DNA from: a virus
Lineage: Duplodnaviria > Heunggongvirae > Uroviricota > Caudoviricetes
Length of the DNA stretch: 5,039 nucleotides
IMG/VR virus record: IMGVR_UViG_2778261066_000006
Reading direction: 5' to 3' (one strand)
This document shows, piece after piece, positions 867-5,039 of the stretch (positions within the stretch are counted from its first letter, which is position 1; each line of letters opens with the position of its first letter). A model generated the notes under the pieces. It was not told the DNA's origin. It saw nothing but the letters and a program-made list of their open reading frames with translations, and made no database searches. The translations under genes were made by a program, and so were the position numbers.

Positions 867-2793
867 TCATTGTGGCATTGTTAAACAATTCACCCATTGA
901 ACTAAAAATTCTACTCCATCCTTCGTTAATCATATTCGGTTTATTAGGGTCACCAGAATACACAGGATTAAAGTCACTACCCACACCTACCCCAGATGGA
1001 TGCATATTAGCGTTTTTGACTACTTCCTGATTCATAAAATCCAGTGCTTTCTTCAATGCATATAAACCAAGAGTGACGCCTCTGATTTGTGGAATCATTG
1101 AAGCTAATGCTAACGCTGTTTCATAACCGTCATCAGCATAACCAATTGCAAGAGCACTACCTACACCACCAGCTACACCTTTCAGTTTTCCACCACCTTT
1201 ACCAGTAGCTACCTGACCAGCCACCTGATTAGCTCTTGTACCTAACGTTGTGATTGCTCTTGTCAGGTTCATAACCCCTGTAGTAGCACTGAATAGTGTC
1301 TTTGCAGATAACGCTATAGCAAGACCTTTGACAAAATTGATAAAACCATCACCGACTTCATCAAGTAGTTTTCGTTTAGTGTCATCAAGGCTGTAATAGG
1401 TCTTCTTAATCTGTAGAATCCAGCCTTCAAGGTGATTGTTAAAGATACGGATGTCATCTACACCAGCTTTAAGCATGTCGATAAGTCCACCGATAGCATC
1501 ACCAGCGATAGAAGAACTCATCCCCATTTCACTAAGCAGGTTACTCAGGCTGGATAAGAAGCCGTTTAACTCATCCTGTGAACCTGAGAAGATTTTCACC
1601 ATCGTATCATCCCAGTTGTTAGCCAGTTTCCCTAAAGCTGTCTGAGTGCTCTTAGCGACTTCAGCCCAGCCACCTGCTTTATCAATCATCAAGCCCATCT
1701 GTTTAGCGACTTTAGGGAGAGTATCAGCGGAAAGAATCTTCCCGTTTTTCATGGCTGCATCAAGCTCTGTAGCAGTCATACCCAATGCTTCAGCGAATAG
1801 TTTAAATGCACCTGCCATACGGTCACCTAACTGACCACGAAGTTCTTCAGCCTGAATCTTGCCCTTGCTCGCCATCTGCTCAAAAGCTTTCAAAATGCCG
1901 TTTAGCTCGTCGTTAGAAAGCCCCATTAAGCGACTCATAGCCGTTGCATTACCAAATAGCTCCTGTGTCTGTTCCTGTGACATAGAACCCTGAGCACCTG
2001 CTGCAAACTTAGCGTAGCTTGATAGCCCTTCAGAGATATTAAGACCTGTCTTGTCTGCTAAATTTCGAATAAATACCTCAGCTTCAGAGGCTTTATCACC
2101 AAGTACAAACTTAGCGGCTCTCTGTGCGGAATCTCGTTTAAGACCTGCATTCATAATGGCCTTGTAAGCGTTAAGAGCACCCATCACAGAGTAAAATGCA
2201 CCAGATAATTTAATCGCATTGCTTGCAAGATTATTAAATGCGTCGCTTGTATTGTTAATGCTGGCGGTCTTTGTCTGTGACCTGAGTTTATTCAACGTTT
2301 CACGAAGAGATTGATTTAATTTTGCAAGTTCAGCGTTAAACTTTTCACTTCCAATATTACCAGCCTTACCGCTTAAGCTGTAATACTGTGCTTTAAACAT
2401 TTTAGCCATCAGCGGATTAATATCACCAAGCTTAGACATATTCACGCTATGCGCTGCTGTGATTGCTCTGTTTCCGCTAATTCGTGGCTGTCTTGGTTGT
2501 TTTGGAGGATTAACAGTGTCATTAAATCTGGTGGTAAACTGGAAAGCTTTAGTATTTCTTGCTCTCTGTTCAATCTTGTCAAAGGTCTTATTAAACTTCC
2601 TTTCAAGCTGCCCTAAAGAAGCCGTTAAATTACTATCAAGCTGCTTTGTATTAATCCTGAAACCTTTGTTAAGGTTCTTTTCAATTCTTTGTGCTGACTG
2701 CAAAGCTGCCTTTTCAACTCTTTGCAAGCCCTTAATAACGTCCTCATTGAAGCTTAGCTCAACGATAAAACTATCAACTGTGAATTTGCTCAT
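850..2793 (-). CDS. phage tail tape measure-like protein (647 aa)
   Basis: Long ORF with SD AAGAGGTGA (revcomp of 2801-2809) 7 nt upstream of the ATG. It is alpha-helical, Ala/Lys/Gly-rich and of low complexity. The internal segment ...[57 protein letters not shown]... resembles the conserved tape-measure N-terminal-type domain. Gly-rich hydrophobic stretches near the C-terminus ([48 protein letters not shown]) are typical of tape measure proteins. Domain assignment is by recognition, not by search. Confidence 0.6.
853..870. other. Host/foreign junction inside wrbA (putative att core/boundary); exact crossover not determinable from one junction
   Basis: wrbA identity ends at ~866/867, and composition changes abruptly from GC-rich to AT-rich across this point. 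Confidence 0.6.
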
Positions 2794-2823
2794 TCATATT
2801 TCACCTCTTAAGTGTTCATATAC

Positions 2824-2875
2824 AAAAAAGGGAGAAACTACCGATATCACTCGATAATCTCTCCCGTTGATTTTT
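2824..2875 (-). terminator. Weak hairpin between the 69-aa ORF and the tape-measure-like ORF (GGGAGA/TCTCCC stem, 24-nt loop, T-runs on both sides); possible attenuator or partial terminator
   Basis: 6-bp stem 2830-2835/2860-2865, flanked by AAAAAA (2824-2829) and TTGATTTTT (2867-2875). The large loop makes it a weak candidate. Confidence 0.25.
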
Positions 2876-2892
2876 ACCCAACCAATTCTTTT

Positions 2893-3102
2893 TTAATGTC
2901 TGACAAGATAATGTAATTCCGTTTCACCTATGATTTGAGCATCAGAAGGAATACGGTCAATACACCACTTTGGAATCTTGCGTGTTTTTGGTTTGTGTGA
3001 GGTGATAACTTGACGTTTGTTTTTAATTCTTAAGGCTGGATTGGCTTGTAACTTTAAGTTTTCACAAACAGACCGAATAGTCTCTAGACGCTCTTCAAAC
3101 AT
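2893..3102 (-). CDS. hypothetical protein (69 aa), basic
   Basis: ORF with strong SD AAGAGGTGA (revcomp of 3106-3114) 3 nt upstream of the ATG, starting 23 nt after the stop of the upstream 236-aa ORF (operon-like). No recognisable domain. Confidence 0.55.
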   Translation of the reverse strand: MFEERLETIRSVCENLKLQANPALRIKNKRQVITSHKPKTRKIPKWCIDRIPSDAQIIGETELHYLVRH

Positions 3103-3125
3103 TAATCACCTCTTTTAATTCATAG

Positions 3126-3836
3126 TTAAAGTGTCTTGCTATACTTCTGAGAAATCTTAGTAAGCTGCTCAATATCAGCCTGCATAGCAATCTTCTTCTG
3201 CGTTTCATAGTCACTGATTAGTTGCTTCATAGCTCTAAGCTGGTTAGCAAGCTCTTGCTTAAATCTGTTTAATTTTTTGCTATGACGCTCAAGTAGATTC
3301 TTTTCAGCTAACTGACAAATCTCTTCATCTGTTTTATCAGACAGTAAAATATATGAACCTGTACCGCGTGAAGCTGGTCTAACATCAATTAAACGGAATC
3401 CTTCAGGGATGTTTTGAAGAACTTTTGAGATATTCTCTCTTGCTGTACCAAAACCATCATTATCTTCAACTGAGTAATATACGAATGGATTTTGTCTAAT
3501 TTCCACTTCAATATCAAAATCAGTTGGCTTTTCAGTCTCTTCAAAGTTCTTCACATTGTCGTAAGCGTCATCTAATCTAAGGCGCTGTGCTTTTAACTGT
3601 GGGTAATATTCACGCTCAAGATTAAATAGTGCTTCAGTTTTACCAATATCGGGCATCTCTTGAGGCTCAGGCGTCACAAAGATGATTTCCTTTGGTGACA
3701 TCTTTAGCGATTGCTCAAGCTTAATTCTTTCATCGTGTTCTTTACGCTGAATAGTGATAGCTGGATGTTCAGTCTGTGGCGACCAGTCACCGAAGCTATC
3801 AATCTTTTTACCGTTAATGTAAATATCGTTTGTCAT
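3126..3836 (-). CDS. hypothetical protein (236 aa), acidic/charged with predicted coiled-coil C-terminus
   Basis: ORF with SD AAGAGGA (revcomp of ~3844-3850) ~7 nt upstream of the ATG. Same AT-rich composition as its neighbours. First gene of an apparent 236aa-69aa-(tape measure) transcription unit. No recognisable domain. Confidence 0.7.
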   Translation of the reverse strand: MTNDIYINGKKIDSFGDWSPQTEHPAITIQRKEHDERIKLEQSLKMSPKEIIFVTPEPQEMPDIGKTEALFNLEREYYPQLKAQRLRLDDAYDNVKNFEETEKPTDFDIEVEIRQNPFVYYSVEDNDGFGTARENISKVLQNIPEGFRLIDVRPASRGTGSYILLSDKTDEEICQLAEKNLLERHSKKLNRFKQELANQLRAMKQLISDYETQKKIAMQADIEQLTKISQKYSKTL

Positions 3837-3865
3837 TGTTTTTTCCTCTTCTAAGCTAAAGTATT

Positions 3866-3951
3866 TCAGTTTTTAAAAAGCACACCTGACAGCCTACAAA
3901 CTTAGAAGAGACTTAAAAGGCGGTTTGCCAAGTATGCTTTTTAAAAACTGA
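3866..3951. repeat. Perfect 17-bp inverted repeat pair (TCAGTTTTTAAAAAGCA at 3866-3882; TGCTTTTTAAAAACTGA at 3935-3951) flanking a 52-bp spacer; candidate operator or regulatory element upstream of the 236-aa gene
   Basis: Directly read: the two arms are exact reverse complements. Each arm also contains the palindrome TTTTTAAAAA. The pair sits 30-115 bp upstream of the 236-aa ORF start. Confidence 0.5.
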
Positions 3952-3986
3952 ATAGCCCTAGATAATTTCTTATAAAGGGCTATTCA
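3949..3986 (-). terminator. Candidate intrinsic terminator (11-bp stem TGAATAGCCCT/AGGGCTATTCA, 16-nt loop) followed on the minus strand by G+UUUUU
   Basis: Perfect 11-bp stem read directly. On the minus-strand transcript the stem is followed immediately by GTTTTTAAAAAGC. Could terminate transcripts from the 107-aa gene, though it lies ~330 nt downstream of that stop. Confidence 0.4.
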
Positions 3987-4315
3987 TAAGGTGAAGAAAT
4001 TAAAAAAAACATCTGAAGGATTCAATAACGAATGAACAAGAGTACTTTTCGAGATGACCTCTCAGACTAACCTGAAAGGCCATGTAGCGAAAAGCATTGC
4101 ACCTTTCCAACTCAGAATATAGTTATCATCGATGTAGAGACGATTAATAGTTTAATTCAGGAAGAATTGCTCTCCCCTATATACAATCTTCTCATGCTTA
4201 AGGTTATTTGTCAACAGCTTTTTAACAGATTGGTAACATCAATTCTTATTTACTGTGTTACCCACCCAGCAACCAACAAATAGCCCTAGCAACGTCCAAG
4301 CAATTATTAAACCCA

Positions 4316-4639
4316 TTAGTGAACCCTCACAGAATCCGTAACCAGAATATTGTCAGCGTGCAAAATTACTATAGCCGCCTTGAGATATTGTTCAGGGCTA
4401 ACACTGTATTTGTTCGTTTCTTCGATAATAATACGCTTCATGTTTGAGTCTGTAATTGGTAGCATCATTCGAGGCTCGTTAAACTCCACCGACTGAATAA
4501 AGTCAGAGATGCTTTCCGCATTATCAGCCATTAACTCTAACAACTTATCAAAGTCAATGATAATACCTGCATCAGTGAAAGCCTGAATCATCATGGTGGT
4601 GTCGCTATCAACGAAAATCTGTAATTCGTAATTATTCAT
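4316..4639 (-). CDS. hypothetical small acidic protein (107 aa; ~18 Asp/Glu vs ~7 Lys/Arg)
   Basis: ORF with SD AGGAGA (revcomp of 4649-4654) 9 nt upstream of the ATG, TAA stop at 4316-4318. No recognisable domain. Confidence 0.65.
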   Translation of the reverse strand: MNNYELQIFVDSDTTMMIQAFTDAGIIIDFDKLLELMADNAESISDFIQSVEFNEPRMMLPITDSNMKRIIIEETNKYSVSPEQYLKAAIVILHADNILVTDSVRVH

Positions 4640-4910
4640 TTCTTAAAATCTCCTTTTTACCAGACCTCCTCAATCGCTCTGTAACGAGCTAAACAGTCTT
4701 TTTCAGGGGTAGCCTGTACAGTGGTATTACCCACCCTAAAATAAGGTAGTTTTTTGCGTTAGAATGCGATTGAGAGCGTCTGAGAAGCTGTTTTTCTAAT
4801 TTCTCTTAAAGTCTCGGACTTGCATAAGATTTTTTGGTCTGGTATCGGCTCTGTTACCATTTCGATGGATAATTTGCTTGTTGGATTGATAGCCATGATA
4901 AAGGAACCAG

Positions 4911-4933
4911 GGTGATGCTGCCAACTTACTGAT
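4911..4933 (+). repeat. IS1 left terminal inverted repeat (IRL)
   Basis: GGTGATGCTGCCAACTTACTGAT is the canonical IS1 terminal repeat. Confidence 0.85.
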
Positions 4934-4965
4934 TTAGTGTATGATGGTGTTTTTGAGGTGCTCCA

Positions 4966-5039
4966 GTGGCTTCTGTTTCTATTAGCTGTCCCTCCTGTTC
5001 AGCTACTGACGGGGTGGTGCGTAACGGCAAAAGCACCGC
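4966..5039 (+). CDS. insA: IS1 InsA (N-terminal 24 codons; partial at window edge), GTG start
   Basis: Translation from GTG at 4966 gives (M)[24 protein letters not shown], the InsA N-terminus including its CxxC motif. Confidence 0.85.
   Translation, partial: [24 protein letters not shown]

Follow-up and report, generated by a model that had tools for sequence, protein, structure and literature searches.

The stretch at positions 3987 to 4315 of the 5,039-nucleotide DNA analysed here (the window) is, on our best reading, a control region between two gene blocks of a mobile element, and we regard this reading as probably correct. The most economical mechanism, which we likewise consider rather likely, is a conditional-termination leader that gates a downstream block of tail genes and whose terminated product is a small RNA. 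Comparison of related sequences showed conservation of a small gene, a promoter, strand-specific RNA pairing, a terminator, and covariation between an anti-Shine-Dalgarno (anti-SD) sequence and the Shine-Dalgarno (SD) region of the next gene.

The window derives from Escherichia albertii and contains the decayed remains of an 11-kb integrative, phage-satellite-like element; the genes of this element that are present here all lie on the minus strand. Positions 1-866 contain yccJ and wrbA, the latter without its first 10 codons, whereas the DNA between about 867 and 4910 has a low GC content (39%; 39.2% for the whole element). Read in the direction of transcription, the 107-aa gene (4316-4639, minus) is separated by a gap of 479 nt (3837-4315) from the 236-aa gene (3126-3836, minus; ATG at 3836-3834), which is followed by a 69-aa gene and by a truncated tape-measure gene (850-2793, minus; PF20155, and phrog_4036 at 6.6e-92). 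The tape-measure ORF is 647 aa long, against 694-726 aa in complete relatives, and continues straight into wrbA; this fusion by deletion indicates that the genes for the Dit-like protein and the recombinases are gone from the window copy. From 4911 to 5039 lies what we take to be an IS1 end, identified by eye, and it truncates the upstream genes on the HNH side. With a degraded -10 element (see below), an operon cut short at wrbA and upstream genes interrupted by IS1, the copy in the window is probably no longer active or functional. A protein identical to the 107-aa one has been recorded for Escherichia albertii NBRC 107761. The stretch had been singled out as AT-rich; its GC content is low indeed (36.2% over 3987-4315) but not distinctive, the flanking genes being at 37.6% and 38.6%, and its AT-richness simply reflects that of the element as a whole.

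The comparison set consisted of 136 related loci, drawn from 20 annotated E. coli regions, 1 Escherichia sp. contig, 12 IMG/VR contigs and 102 metagenome contigs. Those relatives that are complete measure 10-11 kb and are integrated, with a large serine recombinase gene and a small, invertase-type recombinase gene at their ends; the integration sites lie within wrbA, in the interval from tonB to yciI, or beside yecN. The genes of these elements are arranged in the order 185-aa, 93-aa, HNH, ~66-aa, 107-aa, gap, 236-aa, 69-aa, tape measure, Dit-like. The element is present in 474-478 of 5426 complete E. coli genomes (about 9%), and its proteins have recorded homologues in Shigella, Salmonella and Citrobacter. 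At the position of the gap, 470-590 bp are without annotation in all relatives, and in RefSeq this holds for 60 of the 60 matches listed. No counterpart of the element was found in 50,697 phage records, whether by near or distant DNA similarity or by tblastn with the 236-aa protein, nor did these records contain any sequence similar or complementary to the leader described below. A scan of a genome collection with the 236-aa protein returned a single locus, and a literature search yielded nothing relevant describing the element. The element is apparently undescribed, though common.

Several observations bear on the nature of the element. In one related locus (L008), the tape-measure protein (2562-4646, minus) is about 30% identical over its full length to tape measures of FelixO1-like myoviruses and the gene of the Dit-like protein lies at 1557-2327 (minus); capsid genes are absent from the element. 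The 93-aa protein bears a weak likeness to P27-family small terminases (E = 0.004), and its gene adjoins that of the HNH endonuclease. Tape-measure and Dit-like proteins without capsid genes, together with a terminase-like protein beside an HNH gene, suggest a phage satellite. One metagenome contig (L073; ERZ506742 NODE_633, 11233 nt) contains the whole element with a terminal overlap of 55 nt, which indicates a circular assembly (L034 is also listed); in L073, the genes of the large serine recombinase and the small recombinase are adjacent, with the junction of the circular form between them. These features suggest that an excised circular form of about 11.2 kb exists. Several further metagenome contigs are 11-12 kb long.

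The proteins around the gap offered little by way of annotation: the 236-, 107-, 69-, 185- and 66-aa proteins received no assignment from Pfam, PHROGs, NCBIfam or PADLOC. RefSeq names many homologues of the 236-aa protein "transposase", a name for which these same sources (Pfam, PHROG, NCBIfam, PADLOC) give no domain support. Its predicted fold consists mostly of long helices, and a BFVD fold search returned no structural neighbour at E <= 0.001; the AlphaFold models of the neighbour proteins are poor (pLDDT 62 and 71.5). Since its gene lies upstream of the tape-measure gene, the 236-aa protein could be a tail-assembly or chaperone protein.

The original prediction called the stretch ORF-free and stated that no ORF with a credible ribosome-binding site was present. 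Neither statement survives comparison with relatives. A 25-codon ORF on the minus strand (4239-4316; ATG 4316-4314, stop TGA 4241-4239) encodes the hydrophobic peptide MGLIIAWTLLGLFVGCWVGNTVNKN. Stop codon TAA of the 107-aa gene and start codon ATG of the ORF overlap in the sequence TAATG, and an SD-like GAGGG (4324-4328, minus), located within the 3' end of the 107-aa gene, stands 7 nt 5' of the ATG; relatives have GGTGG, GAGG or GAGGT at the equivalent place. The ORF is intact and in frame in 131 of the 133 loci for which the region is available. The 25-aa type occurs in 41 peptide variants of fixed length, and an alternative type of 21 aa is found at the same TAATG junction: in 30 loci, the hydrophobic peptide MELVIICFVLIGMIAGASIKV or a close variant replaces the 25-aa type. 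Of the first 33 loci, 25 have the 25-aa type, in 24 different nucleotide sequences that are free of indels. Their variable sites are distributed 13/9/20 over the three codon positions, i.e. with an excess of variation at the third, and the pooled pN/pS is 0.29. The gene is without annotation in the RefSeq relatives, including all 60 of the matches listed, and an exact look-up in a collection of 15 billion proteins found neither peptide type. Judged from its sequence conservation, the small ORF is a real, unannotated gene for a predicted single-helix (single-pass) membrane peptide, and is predicted to be translationally coupled to the 107-aa gene via TAATG. The peptide represents a new small-protein family, albeit of a familiar kind.

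Directly 3' of the stop codon of the small gene lies a promoter block of 53 nt, P2, which in relatives has the form TGTTAccaatcTGTTAaaaagcTGTTGACA-17 nt-CATAAT. In the window, this predicted sigma-70 promoter (4186-4214, minus) is composed of a -35 element TTGACA (4214-4209), a 17-nt spacer and a -10 element GAAGAT (4191-4186). The perfect TTGACA had been pointed out before; it is kept in all related loci but one, which has TTGATA (L114). It had also been said to lack a well-spaced -10 element, and it is true that the GAAGAT of the window matches the consensus at only 3 of 6 positions, with A2 and T6 kept; the spacing, however, is exactly 17 nt, and about 85% of relatives have CATAAT at this place (17/21, 12/12 and 85/102 loci), matching TATAAT at 5 of 6 positions. 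GATGAT (2 and 15 loci), TAAGAT and the GAAGAT of the window are minor variants. A consensus scan made no call at P2 because the -10 element of the window falls under 4 of 6 matches. Between loci, the block retains an identity of 0.88-0.90 where that of the flanking genes drops to 0.73 and 0.63.

Three direct repeats TGTT(A/G) precede the promoter with a spacing of 11 nt (4238-4234, 4227-4223 and 4216-4212, minus), the last overlapping the -35 element, and form a putative binding site for a regulator. A paralogous promoter, P1, lies about 2 kb upstream, before the 185-aa gene, in 55 of the 81 loci with enough sequence (L008 8140-8240, minus; also L001, L003, L007, L073 and L107). Its layout is TGTTA-N6-TGTTA, 7-8 nt, TTGACA, 17 nt, TAGTAT, then TGTATATATA; P2 has an identical layout of repeat, -35 element, spacer and TGTATATATA. 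P1 is followed by a short 5' UTR, the long leader being found only at P2. The two promoters share operator-like direct repeats at an equal distance from the -35 element, which points to a common regulator: P1 and P2 are probably bound by the same protein.

An inverted TGTTA pair is located just 3' of P1. The roughly 2 kb that separate P1 from the small recombinase gene contain no ORF of more than 64 codons and no annotation (L008 8136-10146; equivalents at L001 9336-11297 and L002 9739-11365). In L008, they include an 83-nt unit, repeated twice with about 90% identity and a spacing of 95 nt, and several copies of TCTTTAGCAnTTnGTGCTA, both direct and inverted; Rfam gave no match. This stretch might serve as an origin or give rise to another non-coding RNA.

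From P2, with the start predicted from its spacing to the -10 element (4180-4177) and the 3' end in the T5 tract at 3947-3943, a primary transcript of about 235 nt is predicted (3943-4179, minus). Its minimum free energy is -69.1 kcal/mol (z = -4.9), 16 kcal/mol stronger than that of the opposite strand (-52.7 kcal/mol, z = -3.1). A 5'-terminal hairpin, SL1 (GGGGAGA/UCUUCCU, 4160-4177, minus), is likely to act as a 5' stabiliser: near the predicted start, all loci have 5-13 predicted pairs at this place, in 39 sequence variants, with 61 of 352 pairs G:U. Further downstream, the SL3 domain (4044-4107, minus) is composed of an invariant hairpin of about 20 nt (GAAAGG-UGCAAUG-CUUUUC, 4107-4089, minus), a variable stem of 12-13 bp, SL3b (4083-4054, minus), and a lower-stem partner CUCGAAAAGU (4053-4044, minus). 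In SL3b, the sequence is free and the pairing is kept. Over its 26 distinct sequences, 304 of 307 pairs are canonical on this strand versus 258 of 307 on the opposite strand, and 46 of the pairs are G:U. In 13 representative sequences, 5 of the 12 pairs show compensatory double changes and 97.4% of cells are paired, a value reached by none of 500 shuffles; slid controls gave 31-51%. Since many pairs of SL3b and SL1 are G:U, only an RNA of the minus strand fits. A small hairpin, SL4 (UUCA...UGAA, 4019-4037, minus), is predicted in most loci.

The leader contains no conserved ORF. A 36-codon ORF starting with TTG (4110-4000, minus) and two conserved AUGs in SL3 were examined, and coding potential was rejected on account of a 2-nt indel and of early stops in other variants; with such indels and with variable loop lengths, no reading frame survives. 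Rfam gave no family match for the window, for three complete relatives or, at E <= 10, for the region by itself, returning only generic hairpin matches (miRNA precursors) and a sub-threshold rhtB match on the terminator. A partner for SL3b was sought among all 250-nt modules within 2.6 kb on either side; none was associated with SL3b class (adjusted mutual information at most 0.11). The leader has a modular, mosaic make-up and constitutes a new RNA family of a familiar kind. Between the promoter and SL1, 23 loci (L006, L009, L012, L014, L015, L033 and others) have a 31-nt insertion with a hairpin GGAUAG-UCUU-CUAUCC, and a subset of loci has a 28-nt insertion (GGUGAGGUAUGUUCUAUACCGAACAUUCU) upstream of SL3. 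The CUUUUC at 4094-4089 can pair with the upstream GAAAGG or with a downstream GAAAAG (within 4107-4044, minus), and its preferred partner switches with a G/A polymorphism (CGAAAAG vs CAAAAAG); these alternative pairings may amount to a structure switch.

At its end, the leader has a hairpin resembling an intrinsic terminator, AAUAGCCCU(16-nt loop)AGGGCUAUU, after which come CAG and U5 (3943-3984, minus). The 9-bp stem, AATAGCCCT/AGGGCTATT, lies at 3984-3951 and the T5 tract at 3947-3943. This hairpin was noticed in the original prediction and its presence is confirmed, with a homologous GCCC..GGGC hairpin and T-rich tract in 121 of 123 loci. In the window, the loop is 16 nt and U5 is offset by 3 nt from the stem, which gives the RNA its length of about 235 nt; a simple terminator scan made no call here. 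Many relatives have a canonical tail, AGGGCUUUUU or GGGCGUUUCUUU, directly after the stem, and at least 48 loci carry two such terminators. The median distance of the first 3' end from the predicted start is +211 (range 178-309).

Between the terminator and the start codon of the 236-aa gene, the transcript would form a second, long hairpin (3865-3952, minus) with perfect outer arms of 18 bp. Its apex, CUCUUCUAAG (3910-3901, minus), is an anti-SD sequence: it is complementary to CUUAGAAGAGG at 3855-3845, within the SD region of the 236-aa gene (CUUAGAAGAGGA, 3844-3855, minus). Complementarity is uninterrupted over 8-13 bp in 121 of 123 loci and falls into four covarying classes, CUCUUCUAAG with CUUAGAAGAG, UCUAAGUGU with ACACUUAGA, UUCACCUCU with AGAGGUGAA, and AUUCACCUC with GAGGUGAAU. 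This covariation indicates that the leader continues functionally into the downstream gene. The leader is also always followed by the 236-aa gene, even where a homologue of 22-30% identity replaces that gene. Covariance and conservation analysis, which had been suggested as a check, found that SL3b and the anti-SD:SD pairing covary and that promoter and terminator are conserved among relatives.

A small non-coding RNA or a long 3' UTR had been envisaged for the stretch. As to the former, a conserved promoter, a covarying RNA of about 235 nt and a conserved terminator do extend from TTGACA to the hairpin; the upper 78 nt, however, are coding, and the RNA is better called a regulatory leader, the small RNA being its terminated form, since it is tied both physically and by covariation to the downstream gene. 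A long 3' UTR is not the main story, as a promoter lies in the middle of the stretch.

We therefore favour a conditional-termination leader, with the following proposed sequence of events. P2 would produce a strongly folded, untranslated RNA with its 5' hairpin, invariant hairpin and pairing-constrained stem, and this RNA would meet an intrinsic terminator, or two of them, after 180-310 nt (after about 235 nt in the window). By default, most transcripts, including those reading through from the upstream genes, would stop there and yield the small RNA. Expression of the downstream block, which encodes the 236-aa, 69-aa, tape-measure and Dit-like proteins, would need read-through of the terminator or terminators and, as a second need, release of the ribosome-binding site from the apex of the long hairpin. 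We infer that termination is both efficient and conditional. The block might be relieved by an antiterminator encoded by the element or by a helper phage, and RNase III cleavage of the long duplex could free the SD. Searches of the neighbouring proteins with Pfam, PHROG, NCBIfam and PADLOC, and their structure models, revealed no antiterminator.

The same features can be accommodated in other ways. A stand-alone small RNA gene would look exactly the same, with a near-consensus promoter and a terminator behind it, and the RNA might be a free-standing, trans-acting sRNA of about 190-240 nt that pairs with mRNAs of the host or of a helper phage, with SL3b as the specificity determinant and the position beside the tail block incidental. 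Its strong, constitutive-looking promoter, its 5' hairpin, its U-run terminator and its strong structure would all suit such a gene, and SL3b, hypervariable yet always paired and falling into three main classes, is reminiscent of antisense specificity loops. No sRNA family was matched, however, and no complementary target emerged from seven elements with long flanks, where the search returned only the arms of local hairpins and a weak match of 16-21 nt inside the 236-aa gene, in one gene class. Moreover, SL3b class assorts independently of every module within 2.6 kb (the values of at most 0.11 given above), the invariant parts are stems and not an exposed seed, and the RNA is never found apart from its downstream gene, the anti-SD hairpin continuing the same leader. 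We consider this possibility unlikely, although it deserves to be taken seriously. Another reading is a simple operon boundary that lacks any conditional step: the terminator would only end the upstream operon, P2 would restart transcription constitutively, termination would be leaky and the leader would stabilise the mRNA. SL1 is a classic stabiliser, the terminator of the window is imperfect, and no antiterminator came to light. Yet one or two canonical terminators after the promoter, as many relatives have, would be pointless for constitutive restart; an invariant hairpin of about 20 nt and a pairing-constrained stem of 12-13 bp exceed what stability needs; and the SD is masked by the anti-SD. 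A mere boundary appears distinctly improbable to us.

Two further readings fare worse. That a single-helix hydrophobic peptide of 21-25 aa adjoins a structured small RNA with its own promoter brings to mind a type I toxin-antitoxin locus, with the 25-aa peptide as membrane toxin and the RNA as antitoxin. Complementarity and translational coupling both speak against it, and we give it very little credence: the peptide gene has no promoter or leader of its own and is coupled to the 107-aa gene by TAATG, while the RNA is co-directional with the peptide gene, does not overlap it and has no conserved complementarity to its mRNA, the single match of 11 nt being same-sense and confined to one variant. 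Alternatively, the strong sequence conservation seen in this non-coding part of a mobile element, one moreover that circularises, as a circular contig suggests, might reflect a site acting as DNA, such as a replication origin or a packaging or recombination site, and not an RNA. This reading fails on the strand-specific G:U pairs, since the opposite strand, or a cruciform, would have A-C mismatches in place of the 46 in SL3b and the 61 in SL1; in addition, the iteron-like repeats of the element are located elsewhere, in the 2-kb ORF-free stretch, and the circular form has its junction between the two recombinase genes and not in the present stretch. Of all the readings, we find a DNA site the hardest to credit.

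The conditional-termination leader has parallels in known systems. In the late leader of lambdoid phages, transcription from PR' yields the 6S RNA, ends at tR' and is read through by the action of Q. As there, a near-consensus, constitutive-looking sigma-70 promoter directly follows early or regulatory genes and, in architecture only, a non-coding transcript of about 200 nt and an intrinsic terminator precede virion (tail) genes; the promoter spacer is conserved too, which would suit the loading of a factor at that site. The two differ in that no Q-family protein was found next to the leader (Pfam, PHROG and NCBIfam searches of the 107-aa and other upstream proteins) and no sigma-dependent pause element was identified within it, whereas TGTTA repeats common to a second promoter and an additional SD-masking hairpin are present here, and in that the host element is an 11-kb satellite-like island and not a lambdoid phage. 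The lambda N leader and T7 early mRNAs contain RNase III sites, with a long hairpin by the ribosome-binding site. The long, near-perfect duplex upstream of the start codon described above (18-bp arms, about 30 pairs), with its occludable SD, resembles these, but here the SD would pair with the apex of the hairpin in a pseudoknot-like manner, and cleavage by RNase III would be no more than a possible step. 

P4 immunity (PLE leader, CI RNA; Rfam C4, RF01695) is likewise found on a satellite-type element and involves a constitutive promoter, short terminated transcripts and control of downstream genes by transcription termination via a structured RNA, as is proposed here. In contrast to P4, there is no match to the C4/CI covariance model, even for the isolated region at E <= 10, no seqA/seqC-type complementary repeats and no similarity to P4 genes; a search for complementary target repeats of the C4 type found no consistent complementarity outside local hairpins. 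With neither a Q-like protein nor a C4/CI-type RNA detectable, the leader is not a member of the lambda or P4 systems. Finally, type I loci such as Ibs/Sib, ShoB/OhsC and Zor/Orz also place a gene for a very small hydrophobic peptide beside a small RNA gene; here, the peptide is coupled to the preceding gene, and the RNA is neither antisense nor complementary.

A more far-reaching version, which we put forward tentatively and regard as rather unlikely, is that the leader is a new antitermination or sensor RNA of an undescribed family of E. coli phage satellites with their own tape-measure and distal-tail proteins, gated by a helper. A factor from the helper phage or the element would then recognise the invariant hairpin and the pairing-only stem or, alternatively, the leader would act on RNA polymerase directly, as does the put RNA of HK022. 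If so, the tail-tip genes would be on only during helper infection, and the terminated RNA would be abundant in uninfected cells.

About one in eleven complete E. coli genomes carries this element, as do strains of Shigella, Salmonella, Citrobacter and E. albertii, and all annotations checked leave its central 0.5 kb blank. That blank now has a testable anatomy: a missed gene for a small membrane protein, a promoter pair with an operator-like repeat, and a leader RNA proposed to place two layers of control in front of the tail genes. The regulatory principle itself is not new. Annotation pipelines gain one RNA family and one small-protein family to recognise, and the region provides an entry point to how a compact, capsid-less mobile element carrying tail genes is switched on.
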